Shown piece by piece: positions 1,914-58,992 of a stretch of 64,000 nt of DNA (position 1 is the first letter of the stretch; every line of letters begins with the position of its first letter). This DNA is from Candidatus Latescibacterota bacterium (GTDB lineage Bacteria; Latescibacterota; UBA2968; GCA-2709665), in contig OZ220733.1 in assembly GCA_965116875.1 (NCBI GenBank), positions 5,280,001-5,344,000 of the forward strand, read 5' to 3'. The notes below the pieces were generated by a model. The model made no database searches. It was given only the letters and a program-made list of their open reading frames with translations, and was not told the origin of the DNA. A program made the translations under genes and the position numbers.

Positions 1914-2045
1914 CTCAGGAAGGGGGTTAGGGGGAAGGTCTCAGAATCGGTCAGACGTAAGCCGGTAGACGGGAGAGGTTTCCTGCCGCTGGTGGGTTTA
2001 GGGGCACCTGAAATATCGATTTGGACACTGTCCGCAGTTTACTGT

Positions 2046-3050
2046 CTAGCGTAACCACATCCACCCGGACCTCGTTGCCGGATGGGCGATTTCCTCTCTC
2101 AAATTCAGGTTCTTCACTTCCGGATCCACAACACAGTTGCGTATTTCCCGCGCAAATTGAAACAATCTGTTGTCCGGGTACGACTTACTTCTGTTCGCAG
2201 ATGGGGCGGCGGGAGAAAATCCGAGATTCTCGAGTTCATCCATGTAGACCGTCTCGATACGTTCCACCAACTCTCGCCTGTCACCCAACCTTTCGAATCC
2301 CTCCCTGAGAACGGTGCAAACCTTGTCCGGCGTACCTCCAAGCCTATTGAATTCCGCCCAAAGCCACTTGTGATAGGGCGCATATCGTCGATTTATCAGA
2401 AAGCCAACCTTCATCGCGTACTCCGCGAATCTGGTCCAATAGTTGAACGCGCTTACGGCGTCTCCCCGGGCCTCGGCCCTGAAGAGATGCTTTCGAACCC
2501 ACTCCCAGCACCAGGATAGACAGGCCGCCATTCGATGCCTCCATACATCATCCGGATACCTGGAAAACGCATTAAGGCGTGCGCTGACAATGCCCGGTTC
2601 ATCGTGATAAAGCCGGTTTGGAGTCAGTTCGAAGAGGTACGGTTCAGGTATGCGCAACCAGTCCTTCGGTGATCGTGGCGGCTTCCGGAATCCAACGGTC
2701 GCTTCCGTATAGTCGCCAAGTTCGAAGACACGACAGGTCTTTTCAGGTTCATTCTCCCACCGAAATCCATTATACTCCTGAGGTAGTGTATCCAGGATTT
2801 CCTGCAAAGGACCACCGTAACTGCCGAAATCGTCTTTGGCCAACCATACGGTGAATCCCGGACCCCAGCCGTGGTCGCGAGATACTTCGTCGTCGTTCTT
2901 GTGTGCCTGCGAGCCCAAGCTCACGCCGACGGCCAGTCTCCGCACACACTCTGGCAGTCCCCGCTCGATTTCGGGAAGCCCGACCCTGCGAAAGAACCTC
3001 TCCGACAGTTCGAATCCATTCACAGATCCTCCACGATCATTCGGAGTCAT
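2046..3050 (-). CDS. DUF4037-type nucleotidyltransferase-like protein
   Basis: GS...DDEVSRDHGWGPGF and RRYAPYHKWL motifs. Confidence 0.8.
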   Translation of the reverse strand: MTPNDRGGSVNGFELSERFFRRVGLPEIERGLPECVRRLAVGVSLGSQAHKNDDEVSRDHGWGPGFTVWLAKDDFGSYGGPLQEILDTLPQEYNGFRWENEPEKTCRVFELGDYTEATVGFRKPPRSPKDWLRIPEPYLFELTPNRLYHDEPGIVSARLNAFSRYPDDVWRHRMAACLSWCWEWVRKHLFRAEARGDAVSAFNYWTRFAEYAMKVGFLINRRYAPYHKWLWAEFNRLGGTPDKVCTVLREGFERLGDRRELVERIETVYMDELENLGFSPAAPSANRSKSYPDNRLFQFAREIRNCVVDPEVKNLNLREEIAHPATRSGWMWLR

Positions 3051-3061
3051 CAGCTGTTGGC

Positions 3062-3197
3062 CAGAATCGGTCAGACGAAAGCCGGTAGACTGGAGACATT
3101 ACCTGCCTCGTGAGGTTTCTTCTTCTGCCGGCGGCAAAGAGGAATTACATACCACGCAAGGATTTCTTCTCCCGTCTTCCCTCTACCGTCTCCCCGC
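3062..3197 (+). repeat. Heptamer-rich (agacggg/cccgtct) palindromic intergenic element
   Basis: Inverted homologue at 40146-40286; partial copies at 1941-1990 and 28877-29033. Confidence 0.8.
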
Positions 3198-3250
3198 CTT
3201 TCTTCCTTCATCCTTCATCCTTCTTCCTTTTTCCTTCCTCTTTTTCCCTT

Positions 3251-4246
3251 CTACCCTCTCACCGCCTCATTCCGACCTCTCTCCCCGGCCGCTTTGATGA
3301 CAGCCTCGATAAACCTGGCTTTACCGGCCTGGTAAGACTGCCGGTCCATTGGATATCGGCGGGACAGGTCCCGTTTCAATCTCACGTAGTCGTCCGCAAG
3401 GCCCTGGTTCGATCTCAAACAGTCCCTGAACAGGATGATTTCTTTCCAATCCGCGCTCGTTTTTTCGAACATGTGAATATGGTGGGAGCGCGGGACTCCC
3501 TTCCGGAAAAAGTGTCTTCGCGGGATGCTGTTCTCTCCCCTGTACTCGTACCCGATTCCGTCCAGGGGTTCTATGCAGATCCTGGCTTCGTCAAAGTCCC
3601 GGACGGCGACCGCAATGTCCAGTACGGGCTTCGCGGCCACGCCGGGGATTGACGTGCTGCCGACGTGCTGGATATCCTCGACGTAGTCCCCGATCGTTTC
3701 TTCGATATTCTCCTTCTCCAATTTGAACAGGGTGTTCCATTCTTCCCGATAAGGCGCCACGGAAACCTCTCCTCGATTCAGACCGAGCAGGGGGCCACGG
3801 CTGAACAGTTCCGGGATACGGTCACGCGTCAAAAACGTCCGCAGTTCCGGATCCACCCTCATTATGGAATCGTGGGAAATCCATGAATAAGCGAATACGA
3901 CGCCCTCTTCCGGACCCACCGTTCCGATATGCTCCCACTCGTCCGGCAAGTCAGAACCGGCGCTGAACAGGTAGTCCGTCCGTTCCACGTCCGACTGGAT
4001 GTAGGGTTTGAAGTATCGGGTCGTCCCGATTTTCCGGATGAAACGCAGATTTTCGATTCCCGACTCTTCAAAGGTTTCCCGATGCGCGGCCTGAAGCGGC
4101 GTTTCATTGCCTTCGAGGTTCCCGCCCGGAAGTCGATAGTATTCGTAACCGACGGATTTGAGTTCAAGAACCAGCAATTTGCATCGCTCATCCGCCCCAT
4201 ATCTTATGATGAACGCAAATGCTTTATGGACGAGAGGCTTCGTCAT
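3251..4246 (-). CDS. NUDIX hydrolase fused to a GrpB/UPF0157 domain
   Basis: PGGNLEGNETPLQAAHRETFEESG Nudix box; HVGSTSIPGVAAKPVLDI GrpB motif. Confidence 0.85.
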   Translation of the reverse strand: MTKPLVHKAFAFIIRYGADERCKLLVLELKSVGYEYYRLPGGNLEGNETPLQAAHRETFEESGIENLRFIRKIGTTRYFKPYIQSDVERTDYLFSAGSDLPDEWEHIGTVGPEEGVVFAYSWISHDSIMRVDPELRTFLTRDRIPELFSRGPLLGLNRGEVSVAPYREEWNTLFKLEKENIEETIGDYVEDIQHVGSTSIPGVAAKPVLDIAVAVRDFDEARICIEPLDGIGYEYRGENSIPRRHFFRKGVPRSHHIHMFEKTSADWKEIILFRDCLRSNQGLADDYVRLKRDLSRRYPMDRQSYQAGKARFIEAVIKAAGERGRNEAVRG

Positions 4247-7670: not shown

Positions 7671-8040
7671 CACTGCTGTCCAAGAACCGTGGTATTCCTG
7701 AGAGATGAGGATCGAAAAGTGGATTCGATTGGCGATTATGCACGGGGTTGACCCGGATAACGAAAACCAGGTTGCCATGGGTTCACGTTTGTTGCAAAAC
7801 ATGTCATTCTGAGCGGAGTCGAAGAATCTCCCATATTCTCGATTCGACGTGTAGCACATGCCCGTTGAAGACGAACCTGTGCGCGGACGTCTGGCCAGCC
7901 TTTCGGCCTCCTCTGCATAACTTTCGGGCTAAAGCGTGAAGGATACATTTCGCTGATGGCTGTGGACGATTCTCCATCCGTACATTTCGCGCATTTTCGC
8001 GACTTTCGTAGTGAATCAAGTCCGTTTGTGGCCAGAGAAA
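7671..8040 (+). mobile_element. MITE-A copy 1 (internally deleted, no IS inserted)
   Basis: Starts cactgctgtccaagaacc; colinear with 34748-34900 plus 36804-37008 and with 58352-58992. Confidence 0.8.
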
Positions 8041-16461: not shown

Positions 16462-18984
16462 TCACTCATGCCGCAGAACATCCGCCGGATTGGCGCGGGC
16501 GGCTTTGCCGGCGTGCCAAACCACCGTCAGCAGAGCCAAGCCTAGCGCCAATGCGCCCGCTAGCGCAAAGGACCACCAGCCAACGTCGACCCGATAAGCG
16601 AAGTTCTCTAGCCACCTCTCTGCGCCAAAATACGTGACAGGCCAAGCTATAGCGACGGCGATGATCACCAATACGACGAAATCTCCGGATACAACAGCAA
16701 TAACGCTGGTAGTGGATGCTCCCGAAACTTTCCGAATACCAATTTCCCGGCTGCGCCTCTCAACGGTAAATGAAGCAAGGCCAAATAGTCCAAGAAGGGC
16801 GATTAAGATAGCCAGTCCCGAAAATGCGCCGAAGACGCGCATCACTCGCGTCTCGTCTTGATATAGCTGATCGAAATCAAAATACGTGTCCAGCAACGTA
16901 TAGTGAAAATGTATCGAGAGCGCCAATTCAGCACATTTGTCGCGCAGGAACGAGAGAGAGCCGACAATAGTACCGGGGCGGAATCTTACTACGAGATCCA
17001 GAGCCTGCGAGACACCCCTTGGATCCATATTGAGGCGCAACGCCACCGGTACGATCTTGTGGTGCAGCGACCGGATATGGAAATCCTGCACAATACCCAC
17101 GATAGTGCCAGTCGTTTCGATTTCGTCGCTCCAATTCATATGTACCGTCTGACCGGTCTCTGTACCAATACCCATCAACCGGGCGGCCGACTCGTTAAAT
17201 ATGACTCCGTCATAGGACGGGGTCGCAAAAATGGACCCGAAACTCTGCCCGGCGATCAGTTCGATTCCTAATGTCTCCAGGTAATCCTGATCGATATACA
17301 TTGTGTAGATTTCCGCCGGTCTGCCTTCAGGCGCGTCCATCAACGTATACACATTTCTGCTCCTTGAGTCCTTACCGGGAACATCTGTCGTAAGTGACAC
17401 ACTGAGGATATTTGGGTTTCGCTTCAGTTCGCTCTTTATGGTGCGGACACGGCGCTCTAATGAACGCGCATAATTCTCGATTTCAGCTACAATTGACACG
17501 CTGCGGATATTCAGGTTTCGATTCGGTTCGTTCTCTATGTCCCTGATGCGGCGCTGTAAGGAAAGCTGCAAATCGTTATCGATTTCCGGCGTAGCGAGTA
17601 CAACGACATTTCGTCTATCAAAGCCAAGGTTCTTGTATTTAGTGAAATGCAACTGCCTCATCACCACGACTGTTACCCCAATCAGACCTATGGAGATTGC
17701 GAATTGGAAGACGATTAGGCCCTTTCGAAATTCTGCGCTCCTGGGTGTAGCTCTTGACAGGTCCTTCATCATCACAATGGGGCTGACATACGAAAGGAAA
17801 AACGCCGGATAGCTCCCCGCCAGCATGCCGACAACCAATGCCCCCACGCTCAACGTACAAAGAAAGCGTACGCTGTAGGTTATCGCCAGAGACCTGCCGA
17901 CGACGCCGTTCAGGATCGGTAGAAGCATCTCCGTAAGCATGACGGCAGCGGCAAATGCGATTACCGCAACAATAACTGCTTCGCCCAGATACTGGCGTAT
18001 CAGTTGCCTGCGGTGCGCTCCCATGACCTTGCGCAGACCCGCTTCCCGCGCCCGGTTGGCTGAACGCGCCGTCGCCAGATTCATATAGTTCGCGCAGGCG
18101 ATCAACAGGACGAGAACACCGATTGAAACAAACAGGTACAGTTCCTTGATATCACGATTGGCCCCGAGTTCATCATCCAGATTGGAATGCAAGTGGATAT
18201 CTGTAAGAGGCATAAGGCGGCACGGCATACTGGACATCCGTACGTGCGAAGCGGAATTGTCGCCTGCATCGTCTGGTGTGAACTGATGCGGAAGCCAGAC
18301 ACTGATTTTTTCTGCCAGTTTACCATGTAATGCGTTCTCACCGAGGACAAGATATGTGTATGCGATACCGTGCTGCCAATCACCGTAAGGATAGGCTGCG
18401 TAAGGTACCAGTCCCTGGAAGGAAAAGTGGGTGTGCCGCGGAAGTTCGCCAAGTACGCCGGTGACCTTCACCGTTCTCTCAGATGAGTAGCCTGCGTGTA
18501 TTCTCAATGCCTTTCCCATGGGATCCACGTCGCCGAAGTAGCGTTTTGCCATGTCCCGGGAGATTACGATCGCATCAGGCGACGTCAGAGCGGTACCCGG
18601 GTCTCCCTGAACAATTGAAAACGAGAATACGTCGAAGAAGTTCGAGCTCGCATACAACAACCCTTCTTCGGAAAATTCCCGGTCCTGAAATGCCATCCGG
18701 GTACCCGTCATTCGCTTAACTCGGACGGCCTGTTCAATATCGGGAAAATCCGAAACGAGCTTAGGGCCGAGATGCGCAAAAGTCGATGGGCGATTCCATG
18801 TCGAGAATCTAAAAATTCGGTCGGCGTTCCGGTGAAAACGGTCGTATCGAAATTCATCCTCTATCAGCAACCCGATCATCAGGCAGCACGCGATCCCGAC
18901 CGAAAGCCCGGCAATATTGATCGCCGAGTAGAGCTTGTAGCGACGCATGTTGCGAACAGTGATGAGAAGCACGTTTCGGAACAT
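16462..18984 (-). CDS. ABC transporter permease, FtsX/MacB type (paralogue A)
   Basis: YSAINIAGL, IACANYMNLATARS..RAREAGLRKVMGA, ERRSREIGIRKV, ANPADVLRHE. Confidence 0.92.
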   Translation of the reverse strand: MFRNVLLITVRNMRRYKLYSAINIAGLSVGIACCLMIGLLIEDEFRYDRFHRNADRIFRFSTWNRPSTFAHLGPKLVSDFPDIEQAVRVKRMTGTRMAFQDREFSEEGLLYASSNFFDVFSFSIVQGDPGTALTSPDAIVISRDMAKRYFGDVDPMGKALRIHAGYSSERTVKVTGVLGELPRHTHFSFQGLVPYAAYPYGDWQHGIAYTYLVLGENALHGKLAEKISVWLPHQFTPDDAGDNSASHVRMSSMPCRLMPLTDIHLHSNLDDELGANRDIKELYLFVSIGVLVLLIACANYMNLATARSANRAREAGLRKVMGAHRRQLIRQYLGEAVIVAVIAFAAAVMLTEMLLPILNGVVGRSLAITYSVRFLCTLSVGALVVGMLAGSYPAFFLSYVSPIVMMKDLSRATPRSAEFRKGLIVFQFAISIGLIGVTVVVMRQLHFTKYKNLGFDRRNVVVLATPEIDNDLQLSLQRRIRDIENEPNRNLNIRSVSIVAEIENYARSLERRVRTIKSELKRNPNILSVSLTTDVPGKDSRSRNVYTLMDAPEGRPAEIYTMYIDQDYLETLGIELIAGQSFGSIFATPSYDGVIFNESAARLMGIGTETGQTVHMNWSDEIETTGTIVGIVQDFHIRSLHHKIVPVALRLNMDPRGVSQALDLVVRFRPGTIVGSLSFLRDKCAELALSIHFHYTLLDTYFDFDQLYQDETRVMRVFGAFSGLAILIALLGLFGLASFTVERRSREIGIRKVSGASTTSVIAVVSGDFVVLVIIAVAIAWPVTYFGAERWLENFAYRVDVGWWSFALAGALALGLALLTVVWHAGKAARANPADVLRHE

Positions 18985-19062
18985 AACCGGCGACACCCAT
19001 TGATCTGCGTAGCGGTCTCTAGAATTGACACATACGGCAAATGACAGATTAATCCAGTAAAA

Positions 19063-19180
19063 TCAAAAACCGTGCCAAATCACTATGTGCAATTTTTACA
19101 GGGAGTTATATAATGGACAAGACGAGGGGACCACCAGTTAGTGTCTGATAATGATACAGTGATATCCGAAAATGGACACT
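19063..19180 (-). promoter_or_regulatory. Sigma-54-type promoter with upstream enhancer, copy 1
   Basis: TGGCACGGTTTTTGA at 19063-19077; tandem dyads at 19141-19180. Confidence 0.65.
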
Positions 19181-19557
19181 CATGAGGTGTCGTAGAAGAC
19201 TCGCGTGAGTCGAGTTTTCTCGCGCAGGTCTTTCGGGAATGGGCTCTTGCGACCTTACTGTGTCGTGCCGACTGTCACTGGCGATTTGGCAATTCGTGAT
19301 GTCAATTGCACGAAGTCTGACCTTGCAAGGTAAACCTCCAGATGCACCTTGCGTGCCGAGTCGTTTACGCCGCAAGTGGGCCCTGTTGCGACTGTTGAAG
19401 GCCTTATCGACGGCACGGCAAACGATACAGAGATCGCCGCAGAAGAAACCAAGTCGGTCATGTCGGTGACTGCAATGAGACCATCTCTACGCCTCTCGAC
19501 AACGAAAAGGTACGTAGCAGGTTCGAGTACACAACGGTTTGTCTGGATTTGCAATTG

Positions 19558-21984
19558 TCATTCATGACGCAGAACATCGGCCGGATTGGCGCGGCCGGCT
19601 TTCCCGGCCTGCCATCCAACGGTCAACAGCGCCAAACCTAGCACCACCGCTCCTGACAACGGGAACGTCCACCATCCGACTTCGACCCGATAGGCGAAGT
19701 TCCGCAGCCACCTTTCCGCGCCGAAATACGCGACCGGCCATGCAATGACGATGGCGATAATCACCAAGAACATGAAATCTCTGGATATTAGGGCAACAAC
19801 GGTGGAAACGGACGCACCGAGGACTTTTCGGATACCGATTTCTTTAGTGCGACGCTCCGCCGTGAAAGATGCGAGCCCGAGTAACCCGAGAAAGGCGACA
19901 AAGATCCCCAGTACCGAGAACGAACCGAATACCTTCATCAGTCGCGTCTCATTCTGGTATAACTGATCGAAATCAAAATAGGTGTCCAGAAAGGTATAAC
20001 GAAAATGCACCGAGAGCGCCAATTCAGCGGATTTCTCCCGCAGGAATGAGAGAGCGGCAGGAAGTGTACCGGGGCGCGATTTTATTACGAGATCTGGAGC
20101 ATGCCATACATATCCTGGATCCATATTAAGGCGTAACGCCAGTGGTACGATCTTGTGGTGCATCGACCGGATATGGAAATCTCGCACTATGCCCACGATG
20201 GTGCCGTTTGATTCCACGAGGTCTCCCCAATTCATGTGCACCTTTTGTCCGGTCGTGGTTCCAATACCCATGAGTCGCGCGGCAGATTCGTTCAATATGA
20301 CTCCGTCATAGGACCGGCTGGCGAAAATAGACCTGAAATTCTGCCCGGCGATCAGTTCGATTCCCAATGTCTCCAGGTAATCCTGATCGATATACATTGT
20401 CGAGATACTCGTCGGGTTGCTTACAGCTGCGTCCGTCAGTGTATACGTGCCTTCACTCCAAATGTCGTTCCCGGGCACATGAGTTGCAAGAGAAACGCTG
20501 AGGATATTCGGGTTGCGCTTCAGTTCGTTCTTTATTGTCCGAACGCGGCTCTCTACGGAACGCACGTCATCGTCGATACCCGGCGTATTGAGTACAACGA
20601 CGTCCCGCTTATCGAAGCCCAGACTCTTGTATCTGGTGAAATTCAACTGCCTTGTCACCACGACTGTTGCGCCGATCAGACCAATGGAGATTACAAATTG
20701 GAAGACGATAAGGCCCTTGCGAAATCCAGCGCTCCGGGGTGTAGCTCTTGAAAGATCCTTCATCATCACGATGGGACTGACATGCGAAAGGAAGAATGCC
20801 GGATAGCTCCCTGCCAGCATACCGACAGCCAGTGCGCCCACGCTTAGAATAAAAAGAAAACCTCCGCTGTAGCCGATCGCAAGGGACCTGTTCACAGCCG
20901 CATTCAGAACTGGCAGGAACATTTCCGCAAGCATTACGGCAGCAGCAAATGCAATTGCCGCAAATATAGCCGCTTCGCCCAGGAACTGCTGTATCAGTTG
21001 ACGGCGGTGCGCCCCCATGACTTTGCGCAGACCCGCTTCCCGTGCCCTGTTGGCTGAACGTGCGGTTGCCAGATTCATATAGTTCGCGCAGGCCATCAGC
21101 AGGATGAGAATTCCCATTGAACCAAACAGGTACAGTTCCTTGATATCGCGATTGGCGCCGAGTTCCCACTCCAGTTGAGAATGCAAGTGGATATCTGTGA
21201 GAGGCATAAGGCGGCATGGCATACTGGACATCCGGACGCGCGAGGCGGAATCGTCGCCTGCATCGTCTGGTGTGAACTGATGCGGCAGCCAGACGCTGAT
21301 TTTTTGTGCTAATTCACCAGGTAATGCCTTTTCTTCGAGGACCAGATAGGTGTACGCAATACCATGCTCCCAATCACCGGAAGAATAGGCTGCGTATGGC
21401 ACCAGTCCCTGGAAGGAAAAGTGGGAATGCCGCGGAAGTTCGCCAAGTACGCCCGTGACCTTCACCGTTCTCTCAGACGAGTAGCCTGCGTTTATCCTTA
21501 GTGCCTTACCCATGGCGTCCGCGTCTCCGAAATAGCGTTTTGCCATTTCCCTGGAAATCACGATCGCGTCCGGCGACGTCAGCGCGGTACCCGGGTCTCC
21601 CTGAACAAGTGAAAAGGAGAATACGTCGAAGAAATTCGAAGTCGCATAAAACAGTTCCTCTTCGAAAAACTCCAAGTCCCGATATGCCATCGGGGTACCT
21701 GCACTTGATACGCGTTTAATGCGGACAGCCTGTTCAATATCGGGAAAATCCGCAACGATCTTTGGACCGAGATGCGCAAAAGTCGATGCATTGTTCCACG
21801 TCGAAAACCTGTAAATTCGCTGGGCGTGTTCGTGAAACCGGTCGTATCGCAGTTCATCCTCTATCAGTAACCCGATCATCAGGCAACACGCGATCCCAAC
21901 CGCCAGCCCGGCAAGATTGATTGTCGAGTAGAGCTTGTTGCGACGCATATTGCGGATGGTGACGAGAAGCACGTTTCGGAACAT
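19558..21984 (-). CDS. ABC transporter permease, FtsX/MacB type (paralogue B)
   Basis: Highly similar to paralogue A along its length. Confidence 0.92.
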   Translation of the reverse strand: MFRNVLLVTIRNMRRNKLYSTINLAGLAVGIACCLMIGLLIEDELRYDRFHEHAQRIYRFSTWNNASTFAHLGPKIVADFPDIEQAVRIKRVSSAGTPMAYRDLEFFEEELFYATSNFFDVFSFSLVQGDPGTALTSPDAIVISREMAKRYFGDADAMGKALRINAGYSSERTVKVTGVLGELPRHSHFSFQGLVPYAAYSSGDWEHGIAYTYLVLEEKALPGELAQKISVWLPHQFTPDDAGDDSASRVRMSSMPCRLMPLTDIHLHSQLEWELGANRDIKELYLFGSMGILILLMACANYMNLATARSANRAREAGLRKVMGAHRRQLIQQFLGEAAIFAAIAFAAAVMLAEMFLPVLNAAVNRSLAIGYSGGFLFILSVGALAVGMLAGSYPAFFLSHVSPIVMMKDLSRATPRSAGFRKGLIVFQFVISIGLIGATVVVTRQLNFTRYKSLGFDKRDVVVLNTPGIDDDVRSVESRVRTIKNELKRNPNILSVSLATHVPGNDIWSEGTYTLTDAAVSNPTSISTMYIDQDYLETLGIELIAGQNFRSIFASRSYDGVILNESAARLMGIGTTTGQKVHMNWGDLVESNGTIVGIVRDFHIRSMHHKIVPLALRLNMDPGYVWHAPDLVIKSRPGTLPAALSFLREKSAELALSVHFRYTFLDTYFDFDQLYQNETRLMKVFGSFSVLGIFVAFLGLLGLASFTAERRTKEIGIRKVLGASVSTVVALISRDFMFLVIIAIVIAWPVAYFGAERWLRNFAYRVEVGWWTFPLSGAVVLGLALLTVGWQAGKAGRANPADVLRHE

Positions 21985-28779: not shown

Positions 28780-29180
28780 AGCAAATCTCCTGTGGTCACA
28801 ACTGTTCAAAAACGGGTGTGGTTAACCTCAATTCGAAAAAGACAACGGTCGAATTGGCCACAAAAAGCTCGAATGCGGGTAGAGGTTAGACGGGAGACCA
28901 AAAGCGGTGAGACGGGAGCCGGTAGACGGTAGAAGGAATACTTGCCCGCTCTTTAGTTCCATATTGCCTCCGGCACGAAAGGAAATCCCACAAGGCTGGC
29001 AATCTCTACCCTCTCCCGTCTAACGTCTAACCCGGTGGTCGGGCGGGCGGAGGGAAATGTCCCGTTCACGTCCAGTGATTACGAATGTCACGAAATTACG
29101 CGAAATAAACGGCTGGCAAAGAGGGCAGACAGGAATGTCCGCCTCACCCTCAAACCGGTTTCCTCAATGGGTCGGGTGCT

Positions 29181-34544: not shown

Positions 34545-35429
34545 GATTACGCTCCTTCAGGGACTTCCGATATTTCCTGGTCGCATTCCGCACTTAATAC
34601 ACAATGCCAATATAGATTATTGGCTCTCCCGGTGCAAGGTATTCGAGAGTTCGAAAGTTGATACCTTCAGGAATGTCGCCCGACCGACGAGTTCCAAATC
34701 AGACGCCGCTGTGGGAACGCCTGTGGTTTTGAAGGGCGTCGACGATGCACTGCTGTCCAAGAACCGCGGGATTCCTGGAGATGACGTTCGAAAAGTGGAT
34801 TCCTTTCGCGATTATGGACGGCTTTGACCTCGACAACGAAAACCGGGTTGCCATGGGTTCGCGTCTGTTGCAGGGCTTCTCATTCTGAACGGAGTCGAAG
34901 CATCGTTCGCCGCTTCCGTACCGCGCTGGAGTCGGACGTGCTGCCTCTAGGGCGTCGCCATGTGCAGATCGCGGGGGATGATCCCATGCCGCAGTAGATC
35001 CTTCGTCGGCCTGGGGCTTTCTCTACATGAGAAACTGGTCTCAGGCGAAACGGATGCGATTCCTGGACGTCGCACCCAGGCCTCCTCTGGATGACAGTGG
35101 GAAGCAACGTGCTCGGCTATCAGCCAGCATGTCATTCAGAGCGGAGCGAAGATCTGGCCGGTTCATTTCGCCAATGGTTATTGCAAGTCATGTCATTCGG
35201 AGCGTAGCGAAGAATCTCCCGTCTACTATGTTAAAAGTCAAGAGAGAACGACAATTTGTCGGCCTCAGATGCTGGGGTTACTCTGCCATTGTTCGTACCG
35301 ATGCGACGCGTTCATTCCGACACGCTCGACGAGCGTGTCGGAATGAACGAAACAGACGTCATTAAGCCTTGAATGGGTTCCCTGCCACACGACAGCAGTA
35401 GGGACCGGGCGTACGGTGTTCTCTTTTGG

Positions 35430-35637
35430 ATGGCCTCAGATGCTCGGTCAACGCTACCAGTCTACTATTCGTAGTCGCCATTTGCAGGCGCTAACATGCC
35501 ATTTATCCGGAGCCGTGCGAGAGCTGGGGGCGAGCAAACTTCATCGACGTAGTACCTGACGGTCTACAAGACGGGAGGCGCCGTCCCCCGTGCTCCACGA
35601 TCAAGAGCGGTGTGGGCGCAGGCATCTGATGTGACCG
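35430..35637 (-). ncRNA. Putative bridge/seek RNA of the IS1111-type element
   Basis: Closing stem tcagatgc/gcatctga; internal loops match the reconstructed target and the circle junction. Confidence 0.7.
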
Positions 35638-35642
35638 GGTGT

Positions 35643-36713
35643 TCAGCCGGCAAAGAGTCCCAACTGATAGGGCTCTCCATTCAGCAAGATCCTGCGCATG
35701 CGGCAAAGCAGGGATCTGGCAACTCCGACGATGGCGTGTTTACCACCGGCACGAACCCTGATGCGTTCATATTTTTCCTGCATCGCGGGATCTTTCTCGA
35801 TCAGGCGCCAGGCCGCCTGGATGAGTAACGCACGCACCATCGGTTTCCCCTGGCGGGTGATACGCCCGTGCCTCACATGCTCTCCCGACGAGTGCTGGCC
35901 GGGCGTCAGCCCCACGTAGGCCGCCAGCGTCCGTGCGTTTTTGAAGCGCGCCACATCCTGCAGCTCCAGGAGGATCTCCATGGCCGACAGGCATCCCACG
36001 CCCGGGATCGACGTCAGGATGGCCACGCGGTCCCGATACGCATCTGTTTCCGCAAGCTGCCACAGCATCCTCGTCTGGCGATGCACCTGCTCACACAGGT
36101 CAGCGTATTGCTCCAGCATGTTCTCGAAGCTCTCCTGCGCATACGGATCTTCCAGATGCACATCGCCAAGTGCGGTCACGAACTTGCCAGACCACCGCCC
36201 TGTCGATTCTTCGGGCATGTCGATCCCCATATACCGCAACTCGGCCTTGATCCGTAGTTGCACACGCACCCGATCCTTGATGAACTGCCGGCGGCGACGA
36301 CTCACCTGGCGGTGGGATCGCTCTTGAGGCGTTGGCACATAGATCGATGACAAGAGGTCCTTCCTCAGATAATCCGCCAGCTTGAAGCTGTCGATGCGAT
36401 CCGTCTTGACCAGGTTCCCACTCTGGCTCGGGATCAGGCTCGGCGGCGTCACACAAGCATCCACACCCATATCGACGAGAAAATCGTACAGCCCGAACCC
36501 GAAATAACCCGCTTCATACACCGCACAGATCTTCTTCGCTTCGCCGTACCGACTCAACAGCTTATCGATCGCCTCTGTTGTGCCTGCGATGCGATTGGAG
36601 AACAGTCGCAAACCATCCTCGTTGAGAATGGTGATGTGCCACTGCTTCCGATGCATGTCGATGCCCACGAAAAGATCCTTGCCCCGCCACGCTTCAACGG
36701 TATACCTTGCCAT
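35643..36713 (-). CDS. IS110-family DEDD recombinase/transposase
   Basis: VGIDMH, YEAG, KTDRID, LTSIPGVG, YVGLTP..SSG..GRITRQG. Confidence 0.95.
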   Translation of the reverse strand: MARYTVEAWRGKDLFVGIDMHRKQWHITILNEDGLRLFSNRIAGTTEAIDKLLSRYGEAKKICAVYEAGYFGFGLYDFLVDMGVDACVTPPSLIPSQSGNLVKTDRIDSFKLADYLRKDLLSSIYVPTPQERSHRQVSRRRRQFIKDRVRVQLRIKAELRYMGIDMPEESTGRWSGKFVTALGDVHLEDPYAQESFENMLEQYADLCEQVHRQTRMLWQLAETDAYRDRVAILTSIPGVGCLSAMEILLELQDVARFKNARTLAAYVGLTPGQHSSGEHVRHGRITRQGKPMVRALLIQAAWRLIEKDPAMQEKYERIRVRAGGKHAIVGVARSLLCRMRRILLNGEPYQLGLFAG

Positions 36714-37047
36714 CACGAGCCTCCTTGTGAAAGTGTTTGTTGTGGACAACGGCAAAGTATACTCTCACAAGCTGAGGCTCAACTTCATTTTAACATAGTG
36801 ACTTCTGGCTCGTACGTGTAGCATATGGCCTTCATAGACAAATTCGTGCGCGGACGCTCTGCCAGACTTTCCGCCACCTCTCTATAACATTCGGCCGAAA
36901 GTGTAAAGGCCACATTTCGCCAATGGTTGTGGGCGAATTTTCCATCCGTATATTTCGCACACTTTCGCATCTTTCGTTGGTAACCACACCCGCTTTTGGA
37001 CAGGTGTGTCGACGATGAAAGATGCATTGTAAACAGTAGGCAATAAC

Positions 37048-39053: not shown

Positions 39054-40115
39054 TCAGGCTCCTTCGACAGCGACCTCATGTCCACATGACGCCGAGGCGT
39101 AGAGTGCGTCCATGAGCCGCTGGATTCGAACGATCTCGCTGCCGGAAACGGGAGACGTCTCACCCTGACGGACGGCGCCCAGAAATTCGTTGATCAACTG
39201 CCGCATATCGTAGTCGCAAGGCTTCAGGCTGGGAATCTCCTCCCCCCGCCACGATCGTCCGTCGTCGGTCCGGATTCCAAGCGGCGAGACGGACGCGCTG
39301 CCCCGGTCTCCATGAAAGGCCCAACCCTCGTTTCTGTCAGAGGGTCCCTGAAAAAAATCTCCCTCCACGGTCAGAATGGTGTCTCCGGACAGCCGGATAA
39401 AGCCTGCGCCGAAGTCTTCGAAATCCGGGTCGAGCGGAGTTGGATCGACGTCGTCTGCCGGGGGTCCGGCCAGCGGCGGGCATACGGACGCCCTCTGATG
39501 GCGGAATGCGCTGGCGGTCAGCGGTTCGGGGTTGCCAAGAAGCCAAAGTACAAGGTCCAGGTTGTGGATCGTCCAATGCGCCAGTACGCCACCGCCGCAC
39601 GATCCGCGCGAACCGTACGCGATCGCCGGCCGGCCGTACGCGCACCCTCCCCACGTCCGGACGGCGTGTACGTGACCCAGGACACCCTCTGCGATTCGGT
39701 CTCTCAGGTACCGTGACTCATCCCAGGTCCGGTATTCGAAGCAGATACTCAGGAGCCGGTTGCGTGTCTCGGCGGCGCGGACCATGTCCCGGGCCTCGCC
39801 CGTGTCCATCGCCACGGGCTTCTCGCACAGGACGTGACATCCCGCCTCCAGGCACATCACCGCGAGGTCCCGATGACTTGAAGGCAGCGTTGCGATACTG
39901 ACGACGTCGGGCTCTGTCTTTTCAAGCATCGCGTCGGCGTCCTGAAATCCGGCGACTTCAAACTGCCTGCTGGCCTGCGCCATCCGTTCGGGCACCAGAT
40001 CGCATACGCCCACGAGCGAGCAGACCCCGGCATCCGCTGCCTCCCTGTAGGCCGGAAGATGTTGCGAGGTCGCGATCTGACCGCACCCGATCACGGCGAC
40101 TTTCGTCGGACTCAT
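39054..40115 (-). CDS. Gfo/Idh/MocA oxidoreductase
   Basis: VIGCGQIA, HVLCEKP, GGGVL..IHNLD. Confidence 0.9.
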   Translation of the reverse strand: MSPTKVAVIGCGQIATSQHLPAYREAADAGVCSLVGVCDLVPERMAQASRQFEVAGFQDADAMLEKTEPDVVSIATLPSSHRDLAVMCLEAGCHVLCEKPVAMDTGEARDMVRAAETRNRLLSICFEYRTWDESRYLRDRIAEGVLGHVHAVRTWGGCAYGRPAIAYGSRGSCGGGVLAHWTIHNLDLVLWLLGNPEPLTASAFRHQRASVCPPLAGPPADDVDPTPLDPDFEDFGAGFIRLSGDTILTVEGDFFQGPSDRNEGWAFHGDRGSASVSPLGIRTDDGRSWRGEEIPSLKPCDYDMRQLINEFLGAVRQGETSPVSGSEIVRIQRLMDALYASASCGHEVAVEGA

Positions 40116-40145
40116 AAGGCCCTCGCGGAAGACGGTACATGAAAT

Positions 40146-40286
40146 GCGGGGAGACGGTAGAGGGAAGACGGGAGAAGAAACCCTTGCCGGGTTTGTTTTT
40201 CCTCCTTGCCTTCGGCTCGAGAAGAAACCTCACATGGCAGGCAATCTCTCCCGTCTCCCGTCTTGCGTCTACCCGCCTTTCGCTGA
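40146..40286 (-). repeat. Heptamer-rich palindromic element, inverted homologue of 3062-3197
   Basis: Shared tgaggtttcttct and ttcttctcccgtcttccctctaccgtctccccgc. Confidence 0.8.
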
Positions 40287-40307: not shown

Positions 40308-40853
40308 TCAGTTCAGAAGCACTGTACCCTGGACACGGAGGATTTCGCACGCAGTGAAACTGCCCTCATCATACGTCAACCTGACCCCCTCGCAGTAATT
40401 GCAGGATGGCCCCCACGATTCGTGGTCCGCATCGGGCATGCAACCGACCGCGCTGGCTTCGATAAATCCTCCGTGAGAGATAATCAGCGCCCGGCCTCCG
40501 TCCGGGAGCGACCGGGCTATATTGACGTGAAACGCGGCCAGTTCTCTGGCGAAATTGGCAACGACGCTGGACGGATGTTGGTGAATCGTTGCGGAGAATC
40601 CTCCAAACCCAACATCGAAAGAGATTTCCGCGTTTGAGGGCATGGAAGCGAGAAGTTCAATCTGACGGTCGACCGCATAGCCCATGGCGATGCCGGTTTC
40701 GAACGCGCGGGGAATGGTACTCGTGTACACTCTGTCGAATGCCGACATCCCCTCCCCCACCCGTCTGGCGAGGTCTACGCCGGCTTGCGATAGATGCTGA
40801 CCGGGTTTCGTTCTCATTGAGTGTCGTCGATGTTCAATGAATCTAACGGGCAT
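40308..40853 (-). CDS. Histidine phosphatase family protein
   Basis: RRHS, TSTIPRAFET, IISHG. Confidence 0.8.
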   Translation of the reverse strand: MPVRFIEHRRHSMRTKPGQHLSQAGVDLARRVGEGMSAFDRVYTSTIPRAFETGIAMGYAVDRQIELLASMPSNAEISFDVGFGGFSATIHQHPSSVVANFARELAAFHVNIARSLPDGGRALIISHGGFIEASAVGCMPDADHESWGPSCNYCEGVRLTYDEGSFTACEILRVQGTVLLN

Positions 40854-47591: not shown

Positions 47592-49703
47592 TCACTTCAA
47601 TGCTGACAGGCAACAGAACTTCAACTTTTCTCCTGAGCCGCAAGGGCATGGTGCGTAGGGATTCAATCCGCGGGCTGTCTGGAGTTCATTAAGCAGAACT
47701 CGGCTTCTTCTGCGCCATGCGGCTATTCTTGCTTCACCGTTTCGAAGATCGCCCCAGACGGCGGGTTGCAGAATTGGTCCGCGATTTCGCGGTATGAACA
47801 GTCCGGAGAGTTTATCGCGAGCCTTCTGCAACACCGACATCGGGATCGTCTCTTTCAGTCCGGAATTCACGGCAGCGACCACTTGACCCCCTTCGTTTTC
47901 CACTAGCCGCTCCGCGATCTCGCGCCGAAAGCTGTTCCCGACGGCCGATTCCCTGAATCGCAATACGCCATCGAGAAGGCCGGGCTGTTGTTCTATCAAC
48001 GCTCCAAGATCCGAATTGAACCGGCCAGTCAAAGCGTAACTCGCTGCTTCATCCGCCCATGTGCTTCCGCCAGATGCGGAGAAAGCTACACTCGCCAGCA
48101 TCTCACTGCCCAGCAGCATTCGGGTAGCGGTGGCATTAATATGCCGACAAATCACTCCTTTTCGTATCACCGATGCAAGACGCAATACTGGATAGGCCAG
48201 CCAACGCGGTACCGCGCCCGTCGGTGTCCCACCGCTAATTCCCAAGAGCGTACGAATGGATGGATTCACCATTGAACCGCGCGTCATCTGTCCCAACTGC
48301 TCTGAGGTCAGGGCATCCGTCAGATCTATAGACATTGACGCGAGCCCTTCCATTTGTCTTTCGGCGATCTTCTCCTTTCCGGGAAAGGGGGTCAGCTGCT
48401 GACGAATTATCTCTGCGACTGTCCGCTCCTTGAATGACTCCTCCGTACTGGACTTGGAACCCAACTTTATTGTTGCTATTTCTCCGACTAGCGCACCTGG
48501 TTCTGGAAACCCAACAACCGGCTCGTTCGGCTGCACAATCAGGCGTATCGCCTCAACTTCAACGAATTTCCAGAACCAGAACGAGCCAAGCAGGTCGTGG
48601 AGCCTTCCCAAATGACCGACGGACAGGTACGTAACGTCGAAGCAGATCAGTCCAACGACGACATCGTGCAACGCGGAGTAGTTGTCAAGTGCCACTTCGC
48701 CATCCACATACCCTTCTCCGACAATGAACTGCTGAGTACCCGATTTACCGGTTGCCGTAAACGTCTGCGACGTCGTATATTTCCCCCATGGCAGCAAGTC
48801 CCCTAGGAAGTAGACGCTGTCTCGGTCACGTTGCCCAATCGCGGCACTTCCCGAAGCCGTTGCGGTCGGGCGCTCATGGGCCTGCATATCGGCGACGGCT
48901 TCAAGGGTAAGCAGTGCGCTCCGGTGGTCAGCCGGATCGACCCGATAGCTTATGCGTCTGACATTTGCTTGTACCCGCGAAGATCCTTCCGGCAACACAA
49001 TGAAGTGGGGACCGGTCCCGAACAGCGGGTGGGTTTCCGCTCCACGTTTCAGCGCTGCAATCACATGATCGTCTTGAAGACCGAAGCCTAAAAATAGGAC
49101 GCTACAATTGGCGAAAACCGAACGAAGTGCGTTTACGAACGGTGGGTCGGTTGGCACACCGTCGTAGTCACGTGAGGAAAACACCATCGTCTCGACCGCA
49201 CTGATCGACCCGTGCAGTTTGCATATGAATGCCTTGCGTTGGTCCAGCAACAGGGTTAACCGTTCGATATCTGACCGTTGAACGGCCTCCGGTCCAGACA
49301 GGTGGCGCTCTAGGGACTCGTCGACGTTGGTTGTCAAAACGTTCGTCGGCTTGATCCGATCGAGGGCGCGTACCATTCGCTCGTAGACAGGGGTCGCTTG
49401 TTGTGGTGCGAAGGCGTCAGTCAAACAGGAGTAATACAGCGTGGAGTCGCTCGTCCTCATCTCCTCAAAGAGCTCGGGGTATGACCTTTCCGCTAATAGG
49501 GACGAAGCGGTATCCTTGGCGTAGTTGCCCGCCTCCCTTGCGAATCGCAGGTGCATTCGGTCTGCCAGCGCGTCCCATAGAGGGTAACCCGCCCACGCGC
49601 TCGCACCTGCCCCGAGCCAGACTACCAGTGGACGCCGGCGGGAAACAACCAGCGTTTCGAGAGCGTGAAGCGCTTGTTTGGTCTCAAGATCTTCACAAAA
49701 CAC
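47592..49703 (-). CDS. SIR2-like domain protein with C-terminal SEC-C motif
   Basis: WLGAGAS, LTTNVD, KLHGS, LFLGFGLQD; CPCGSGEKLKFCC. Confidence 0.88.
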   Translation of the reverse strand: MFCEDLETKQALHALETLVVSRRRPLVVWLGAGASAWAGYPLWDALADRMHLRFAREAGNYAKDTASSLLAERSYPELFEEMRTSDSTLYYSCLTDAFAPQQATPVYERMVRALDRIKPTNVLTTNVDESLERHLSGPEAVQRSDIERLTLLLDQRKAFICKLHGSISAVETMVFSSRDYDGVPTDPPFVNALRSVFANCSVLFLGFGLQDDHVIAALKRGAETHPLFGTGPHFIVLPEGSSRVQANVRRISYRVDPADHRSALLTLEAVADMQAHERPTATASGSAAIGQRDRDSVYFLGDLLPWGKYTTSQTFTATGKSGTQQFIVGEGYVDGEVALDNYSALHDVVVGLICFDVTYLSVGHLGRLHDLLGSFWFWKFVEVEAIRLIVQPNEPVVGFPEPGALVGEIATIKLGSKSSTEESFKERTVAEIIRQQLTPFPGKEKIAERQMEGLASMSIDLTDALTSEQLGQMTRGSMVNPSIRTLLGISGGTPTGAVPRWLAYPVLRLASVIRKGVICRHINATATRMLLGSEMLASVAFSASGGSTWADEAASYALTGRFNSDLGALIEQQPGLLDGVLRFRESAVGNSFRREIAERLVENEGGQVVAAVNSGLKETIPMSVLQKARDKLSGLFIPRNRGPILQPAVWGDLRNGEARIAAWRRRSRVLLNELQTARGLNPYAPCPCGSGEKLKFCCLSALK

Positions 49704-58351: not shown

Positions 58352-58992
58352 CACAACTGTCCAATAACCGGTTTGATTCACTACGTAGGCCGGGAAAGTG
58401 CGCAAAATAAACGGATGGAAAAACCGTCCACAGCCAGGGCGAAATGTATCCTTTACAAGTGAGCGCAAATGCTATGCAGGGGAGGCCGATAGGCTGGCCA
58501 GTTGTTCGCGCACAAGTTCTTCTACAAAGGGCGCGTACTAAACGTACATTCGAGAATAAGGGAGATTCTTCGCTGCGCTATGATTGGCATATCTTGCGAT
58601 AACACATTGGCGAAACGTGTCGGCCAGGTGACGGCAAAAACTGTCATCCAGAGGAGGCCTGGGTGCAACATCCACGAAGTGCATCGGTTTCACTTGACGC
58701 CAGACTTTCATCCAGGGCCGGCACTCAGGCCGACGAAGGATCTACTGCAGCATGTGATTATCCTTGTGCGGTTTTCACATTTCGATACCTGAGAGGCAGC
58801 ACGTGCGCCACCAACGCGGGACGGAAGCGGCGAACGATGCTTCGACTCCGCTTAGAATGCCAAGTGTTGAAAAAAACGCGAACCCCTGGCAACCTGATTT
58901 TCGTTAACCAGGTCAAACCCGTCCAAAATCGCCAATAGAATCCACTCTCCGAACCTCATCTCCAGGAATCCCCCGGTTCTTGGACAGCAGTG
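58352..58992 (-). mobile_element. MITE-A copy 3, full length, no IS inserted
   Basis: Termini cacaactgtccaataacc / ggttcttggacagcagtg; flanks ggtcaataa and gggcaattt agree at 6 of 9 positions. Confidence 0.85.

Follow-up and report, generated by a model that had tools for sequence, protein, structure and literature searches.

The analysed stretch of DNA, hereafter the window (64,000 nt, positions 1-64000, from a Candidatus Latescibacterota bacterium), carries an insertion sequence (IS) that is very probably an RNA-guided element of the IS110/IS1111 type, aimed at the heptamer-junction word GAAG^ACGG(G/T)AG; the same 12-mer is found in a MITE-like repeat. The word specified by the guides would correspond to the junction of two GGNAGAN units in the arms of an intergenic, genus-wide repeat, here called the heptamer element. 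Judged from the sequence, two places in the window, at 3169-3179 and 40164-40174, are empty landing sites which equal the occupied sites in guide match but are not perfect. The features of the window are compiled in Table 1.

Table 1. Features of the insertion sequence, its host repeat, the heptamer elements and the target words in the window.
Feature	Position	Strand	Details
Insertion sequence, copy W	35223..36801	-	1579 bp with one AG core copy; alignment of six copies
Transposase gene	35643..36713	-	356 aa from ATG 36713; frame open from 36755
Left subterminal inverted repeat ACTATGTTAAAA	36788..36799	-	six-copy alignment
Right subterminal inverted repeat TTTTAACATAGT	35225..35236	-	six-copy alignment
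MITE-like repeat hosting W, one side	34748..35222	.	repeat family comparison
MITE-like repeat hosting W, other side	36802..37008	.	repeat family comparison
Predicted seekRNA/bridge RNA region, two internal-loop modules	35446..35596	-	alignment and consensus fold
Predicted right-flank guide CUCCCGUCU	35569..35577	-	reverse complement of AG core + ACGGGAG
Predicted left-flank guide window GAUGAAG	35539..35545	-	flank match limited to GAAG
Predicted donor guide AUAGUAG	35462..35468	-	equals right IS end including core
TTGACT, -35 half of putative junction promoter	35236..35241	-	partner TATGTT 36797-36792; spacer 17 nt on abutting ends
Full heptamer element	3059..3203	-	nhmmer 4.2e-34; between ORFs 2046..3050 and 3251..4246
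Full heptamer element	40136..40282	+	nhmmer 2.5e-39; between ORFs 39054..40115 and 40308..40853
Third full heptamer element	28899..29035	+	nhmmer; four 9-nt right-guide words, no 11-mer
Partial heptamer element, one arm	1941..1989	-	nhmmer; 9-nt right-guide word at 1967-1975
Predicted empty target 1	3169..3179	-	genome 5283169; minus strand GAAG^ACGGGAG, then AAGAAATCC
Predicted empty target 2	40164..40174	+	genome 5320164; plus strand GAAG^ACGGGAG, then AAGAAACCC
Partial target, other arm of element 40136..40282	40255..40265	-	full 9-nt right-guide word AGACGGGAG

The boundaries of the window copy (W) follow from the alignment of six copies together with their flanks. All six align from TCACTATGTTAAAA (left, after GAAG) to TTTTAACATAGTAG (right, before ACGG), and the target's own AG is located at 36803-36802. 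In agreement with these ends, contigs in three runs skip exactly 35223-36801 (1579 bases, with two ambiguous letters). The IS-less joint 35222>36802 of these three runs was considered as a trace of excision and rejected, its sides being short (22, 22 and 54 nt) at a likeness threshold of 90%; most likely the contigs come from unoccupied paralogous copies of the host repeat. A joint 36858>34937, considered as a circle junction, was rejected as well; it mirrors the locus of the genomic copies A and B.

Assignment of the element can be done by its protein and by its organisation. The transposase carries the domain pair of the IS110 family (PF01548, 3.1e-20, and PF02371, 4.5e-28; Pfam) and reaches 222.7 bits with the model NF033542, 'IS110 family RNA-guided transposase', where the cut-off is 140; its frame is open in all six copies. 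Its translation contains GLTPGQHSSG, corresponding to the motif GL-P----S(T)G in the C-terminal domain, which marks the IS1111 group (PMC11187229). The subterminal inverted repeats comprise 12 bp and are perfect in 6/6 copies, as known from IS1111 elements, for which 7-17 bp (PMC11208160) and usually 11-13 bp (PMC11187229) are given. About 88 nt precede the ATG at 36713, compared with about 420 nt downstream of the stop at 35643, where the non-coding region measures 428 nt, and this is the layout described for the IS1111 group, with a long non-coding region and RNA at the right end, downstream of tnp (PMC11208160). However, the extensions beyond the inverted repeats deviate from the classical lengths, which are 7 (or 6) bp at the left end and 3 bp at the right end (PMC11187229): if the repeats are taken as 12 bp, the left extension is TC and the right one AG, and with repeats of 11 bp each extension measures 3. 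The best transposase matches in the plasmid collection are at most 35% identical, one of them annotated just as 'IS110 family transposase'. We conclude that 35223-36801 on the minus strand is an IS110-family element with IS1111-type organisation.

At 1579-1580 bp the IS is longer than its relatives (1348-1454 bp), with about 180-230 additional nucleotides between the seekRNA and the right end. This extra stretch (35250-35440 of the window, minus strand) is bracketed by a direct repeat containing AGCATCTGAGGCC, includes a perfect 19-bp hairpin at 35309-35349 and may be a small insertion in the non-coding region.

The non-coding region 3' of the transposase gene would encode a seekRNA or bridge RNA. 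A profile-based scan yielded 58 loci in many phyla, and ends and flanks were mapped for 25 of these by conserved end motifs, which replaced a plain inverted-repeat search that was too noisy for the ends of the relatives. The consensus fold of 20 aligned regions has 26 pairs, 15 of them with compensatory changes, and comprises two internal loops closed by stems, with both target guide segments on opposite sides of the first loop. Folded alone, the seekRNA of W is no better than shuffled sequences (z -0.48), and folding the complete non-coding region of 431 nt gave no informative structure. Rfam gave no match at the gathering threshold in the whole window, and in E-value mode the region 35150-36900 delivered chance-level matches to the 19-bp hairpin inside the IS and nothing else. 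Among the sequencing runs registered as RNA, none was found to contain the stretch. A G-rich run upstream of the guide, GGGGGACGG, was tried as a second guide and rejected, as the alignment shows it to be an outer stem.

The predicted guides fall in alignment columns that, in about 20 relatives, hold the flank sequence of the respective element. For the right guide, an exact anchored match of at least 8 nt was found in 15 of 22 distinct elements or subtypes, compared with 7 of 462 mismatched pairings; the left guide, covering left flank and core, matches over at least 6 nt in 15/21 true pairs and 8/419 mismatched ones. Here and in the relatives, the guide for the right flank, which is complementary to the top strand, comes about 35 nt before that for the left flank. 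SeekRNAs of the IS1111 family have been described with the same order, in which the segment matching the top strand is 5' of the one matching the bottom strand (Siddiquee et al. 2024, PMC11187229). The second loop carries on its 3' side a donor guide, AAUAG(N)AG, that corresponds to the right IS end CATAG(N)AG, and the variable base agrees in 20/20 elements; the left-end donor guide, read from the alignment, matches partially (4-5 of 8 nt in W). Taken together, the layout of the non-coding region of W is predicted to be that of a bridge RNA or seekRNA. In the target loop, the 9-nt guide CUCCCGUCU would pair with the AG core and 7 nt of right flank and the left guide would pair via GAAG, and the second loop would match the element's own ends. 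The preliminary description of this DNA had derived an 11-mer from the guides of the IS, and we arrive at the same word: the 9-nt match of the right guide (35577-35569) and the 4-nt match GAAG of the left guide (35545-35539) overlap at the 2-nt core and together give GAAGACGGGAG.

When the ends abut with one core copy, TTGACT and TATGTT are spaced by 17 nt, a sigma-70-type geometry found in 25/31 loci; the linear element yielded no promoter-like site. Circular intermediates and promoters formed at the junction have been reported for the IS1111 family (PMC11187229). Following the IS110/IS1111 literature, the element would excise as a circle, be transcribed from the junction promoter TTGACT, 17 nt, TATGTT, and recombine under RNA guidance at the AG/CT core, and its insertion in these repeats would be harmless.

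A BLAST search of the whole genome (5.45 Mb, one contig) revealed five further copies, A-E, beside W. They form three subtypes: W is 88.8% identical to the rest and A 95%, and B-E share 99.4-99.9% with each other, which suggests a recent spread of B-E. Around C, D and E the sequence is ..agaggGAAG / IS / ACGGTAGA.., and the hosts are heptamer elements as defined by nhmmer, cut at GAAG^ACGG. C and D are cut just before an AAGAA(A/G)CCCTTGCC box, in the register shared with the empty sites at 3169 and 40164, and E is cut two heptamers before that register. In W, A and B the flanks read ..GAAG / IS / ACGGGAGATTCTTCG (left flank ..cgagc(c/g)aGAAG, right flank ACGGGAGATTCTTCGC..), and the host is the MITE-like repeat with the same 12-mer. 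Thus, all six copies carry the word and three of them lie in heptamer elements; flanks unrelated to the word or an avoidance of the heptamer repeats, either of which the preliminary description would have counted against its view of an element programmed against this repeat family, were not found, and the insertion of C, D and E at the predicted cut speaks for that view.

C, D and E represent separate insertions, because their flanks outside the ~140-nt element do not align. All three are found within 33 kb and are therefore of limited independence as a sample of the genome. Their neighbourhood on the chromosome would also suit a process without guidance, in which the IS picked up heptamer-like sequence incidentally and blocks of repeat plus IS were duplicated or recombined; the outer stem beside the guide is in fact G-rich and loosely heptamer-like. 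Such an origin of the 9-mer is extremely improbable in view of the flanks that do not align, of the offset of E by two heptamers from the register of C and D, and of the relatives with unrelated targets, which hold their own flank in the same alignment columns.

The proposed guidance is reflected within the genome by a single-base guide variant (C or A) that tracks a G/T variant of the target. W and A have the guide base C, at 35575 in W, next to a right flank ACGGGAG, whereas C, D and E have the guide base A next to ACGGTAG, in each case with a 9/9 match. Copy B carries the A-type guide at a G-type MITE-like site (ACGGGAG), with one mismatch in the 9-nt guide. We scored the 14-nt ideal target of each guide variant over the whole genome and found no site with 14/14 for any of the three variants. 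For the B-E type, the five best unoccupied sites reach 13/14, 4/5 of them in heptamer elements, and the three occupied heptamer sites, counted from their flanks, reach 13/14 as well. For the A type, 12 of 13 sites at 13/14 belong to heptamer elements, even though the host of copy A is the MITE-like repeat. The W type shows no preference, with 11/14 at its own site and at both window sites; the sites at 3169 and 40164 score 12/14 for the B-E type. Read from the sequences, the left guide matches 4/7 nt at its own site in W and 3/7 in A, and no site matches all 7 nt. The term 'perfect', which had been applied to the two window sites, has to be dropped: GAUGAAG matches over 4 nt there, giving 11/14.

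The heptamer element itself is an abundant repeat, with 139 elements of about 140 nt in the genome, intergenic, with arms of tandem GGNAGAN and covering 0.33% of the genome (nhmmer). The consensus of 107 full-length copies is AAAnGCGG (GGNAGAN)x4 AAGAAATCCTTGCCCG...CTTGCCTCCGGCACGAGAAGAAACCTCACAAGGCAGGCAATCTCT (NTCTNCC)x4, and the element at 3059..3203 displays this layout of (GGNAGAN)x4, conserved core and inverted heptamers. The three full elements in the window occupy gaps between Pfam-supported minus-strand genes; in general, the elements are found in either orientation relative to the adjoining genes. Long ORFs cover on average 0.33 of an element, compared with 0.90 of random intervals, and in 74 of 121 elements the coverage is below 20%. 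Based on this mostly non-coding location, the heptamer elements may serve the IS as a safe harbour. Being short, intergenic, palindromic and present in many copies, the element resembles repeats of the REP/BIME type. A search for RAYT (Y1 transposase) genes gave one marginal, partial match to PF01797 (23.7 bits, with 23 as cut-off, covering positions 40-82 of the 121 in the profile). On reading of the sequences of the heptamer elements, the core motifs of attC sites were not found, and a limited literature search on repeats and transposases of the lineage retrieved no published description of the element.

Regarding the hairpins in which the target words had been placed, the elements do fold as long hairpins, with z values of -5.7/-5.8 for 40136-40282 but only -1.8 to -2.5 for the other two full elements in the window. 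No co-variation of variable heptamer positions between the arms was detected: 800 paired cells were counted compared with a shuffle mean of 821, and 478 of 500 shuffles reached at least that value. The lack of co-variation argues against selection for a perfect hairpin and fits inverted arrays of a short recognition or binding motif.

As to the other contents of the window, the genes with Pfam support are mostly short, on the minus strand and coding for mixed types of small enzymes, among them GNAT acetyltransferases, NUDIX proteins, nucleotidyltransferases, histidine phosphatases, hydrolases and a protein with a class C-type beta-lactamase fold. This content is cassette-like in flavour; no attC-type sites were seen in the window, and the intergenic repeats are the heptamer elements. 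At 47592-49703, on the minus strand, a protein of 703 aa with a SIR2_2 domain (PF13289, 2.8e-20) is encoded. Domains of the SIR2_2 type occur in anti-phage defence systems.

The 11-mer of the window, CTCCCGTCTTC, is present at 3169-3179 on the plus strand and at 40164-40174 on the minus strand, and a 10-mer, CTCCCGTCTT, at 40255-40264, exactly where they had been placed; the 10-mer is scored here as a match with one mismatch at 40255-40265, its left side being CAAG and not GAAG. With at most one mismatch, CTCCCGTCTTC has 7 matches in the window where 1.88 are expected, and this number was reached in 0/100 shuffles. The two exact matches are not independent, because both lie in copies of one repeat and the sites share 34 identical nucleotides. 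Within its heptamer element, target 1 is placed in the register that C and D occupy. In the whole genome, GAAGACGGGAG is present 53 times, compared with about 3.8 expected from base composition: 27 times in heptamer elements, 6 times in heptamer context outside the hits, 10 times in MITE-like context and 10 times elsewhere. The T-type word GAAGACGGTAG occurs 15 times (about 2.6 expected), 13 times in heptamer elements, never in heptamer context outside the hits or in MITE-like context, and twice elsewhere. The occupancy amounts to 3/16 for T-type heptamer sites and to 3/13 for MITE-like sites.

The MITE-like family is about 620 bp long, ends in imperfect inverted repeats of ~18 bp and comprises about 15-20 copies, complete or partial. 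Since 3/6 copies (W, A and B) are inserted at the same 12-mer there, this repeat has to be regarded as a second recurrent harbour, and 10 more unoccupied copies of its target context are present in the genome. The suggestion that the insertion in the MITE was a chance match is therefore not supported. The opposite view, namely that the MITE-like repeat is the primary target and that the insertions in heptamer elements are secondary matches at a look-alike word, would account for the presence there of the two oldest lineages (W, 88.8%, and A, 95%). Both G-guide copies, W and A, sit in the MITE-like repeat, and 0/33 G-type heptamer-context sites in the genome are occupied by a G-guide copy; this zero weighs little, because only two G-guide insertions exist. 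We nevertheless regard a primary role of the MITE-like repeat as improbable. No MITE copy contains an exact 11-mer for the A-type guide CUACCGUCU, and 13/15 of the unoccupied T-type 11-mers are those in heptamer elements. The B-E subtype, at 13/14 in the heptamer sites, matches less well at its one MITE site, and the best matches of the A subtype fall in heptamer elements in the 12/13 cases given above. In addition, the T-type word stands in heptamer context in 9 of the 14 other genomes of the genus.

Elsewhere in the window, the MITE-like repeat is represented by two more copies or fragments, at 7671-8035 and 58352-58992, the latter lacking the target word and reading ctcccttattctcg. Outside the window, at 1778000-1794500 of the same genome (G000:C1, locus L078), five tandem genes for permeases of the MacB/FtsX type (~800 aa, ~70-74% identical) are separated by MITE-like fragments, about 90% identical and each with the IS target; the IS copies A and B lie at the edge of this array. 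Two more genes for MacB/FtsX-type permeases were detected in the window at 16462-21984.

The heptamer element was detected in 14/14 genomes of the same genus, in none of 4 from the family's other genera and, as a weak match, in 1/12 of a sister family. Counting the own genome, 10 of the 15 genomes compared within the genus carry the 16-nt target context, which is almost always of the T type in the relatives; the own genome has nine G-type and nine T-type contexts. The G variant, with its nine occurrences in the IS-bearing genome, totals two among the 14 other genomes of the genus. No close copy of the IS was found in the 14 same-genus genomes. Searches with the transposase had hits at E<=1e-30 in 4 of 61 genomes of relatives (own included); in a set of 168 genomes from the phylum, 3 had hits at E<=1e-60. 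The nearest relative outside the genome has 58% protein identity and is from the same class, with the same end motifs and the target ..CTCAG^GATGACA... A single-protein scan of genome contigs gave no close relatives, and the one relative in metagenome contigs, 51% identical and on a contig of 1.35 kb, was left out of the analysis.

With W being the single copy of its subtype, one may ask if it is a decayed, immobile relic, for which the sites at 3169 and 40164 would be no more than nominal targets. Its left guide matches just 4/7 nt at any repeat site, and no circular junction was seen in the contigs of the runs examined, although contigs cannot show rare forms. We judge this rather unlikely: the transposase frame of W is open, its inverted repeats, junction-promoter halves, guide loop and donor guide are intact, and the recent B-E subtype matches both window sites at the 12/14 mentioned above.

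The best or equal-best sites of the three seekRNA variants share one register, namely ..GGAAG^ACGGTAG for B-E, ..GGTGAG^ACGGGAG for A and ..GAAG^ACGGGAG for W. Tentatively, the heptamer arms might be seen as an address space that co-resident IS lineages split among each other by point changes in their guides, and the element itself as a protein-bound iteron palindrome of an undescribed kind rather than an RNA or DNA hairpin; we consider this possible, but less likely than not.

Repeat targeting by IS110/IS1111 elements is already established, and the present case adds a new host lineage and a new repeat. ISPa11 of the IS1111 family targets the REP sequences of Pseudomonas aeruginosa (PMC11187229). 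Our element shares with it a DEDD transposase, a seekRNA downstream of tnp, the top-strand match in 5' position and an abundant intergenic repeat as target, and it differs by its phylum, by tandem heptamer arms in place of the REP palindrome and by extensions of 2-3 nt in place of 7 and 3 nt. IS621 inserts in REP sequences (PMC11208160), and ISPpu9 (PMC12288879) and ISPpu10 (preprint 10.64898/2026.03.19.712850), of the IS110 group, have REP or conserved intergenic stem-loop targets; for ISPpu10, a contribution of target structure or context to the specificity has been proposed. Common to these and to the predicted system here are RNA-guided recombination at a 2-nt core, programmable target and donor loops and repeats as landing sites. 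However, the RNA of those elements is encoded at the left end, ahead of the transposase gene, and long subterminal repeats are lacking, whereas here it is assigned to the right end and the repeats measure 12 bp. A natural re-direction of the seekRNA was described for ISEc11 and ISXne4 (PMC11187229), related elements which likewise differ in guide bases and targets; there the whole target-matching region is replaced and the hosts are different, whereas here one guide base differs within one genome and one repeat family. ISKpn4, ISPst6 and the IS1111-attC group target attC sites of integron cassettes (PMC11187229). ISKpn4 and ISPst6 are of the IS1111 type and use a recurring structured intergenic site as well, which is attC in their case and the heptamer element in ours. 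Particular to the present element are the co-resident single-base guide variants, the second, MITE-like harbour and the short terminal extensions.

The gain is incremental, because the mechanism and the strategy of repeat targeting are already in print. Our results provide a natural example, from an uncultured lineage far from the model hosts, of an RNA-guided IS living on a host repeat, in which a one-base change of the guide follows a one-base variant of the target. Copy B, with one guide mismatch and a left guide that matches worse, represents a natural off-target insertion. Since about 20 relatives come with mapped guides and targets, these findings could widen the set of bridge RNAs and seekRNAs of known specificity.
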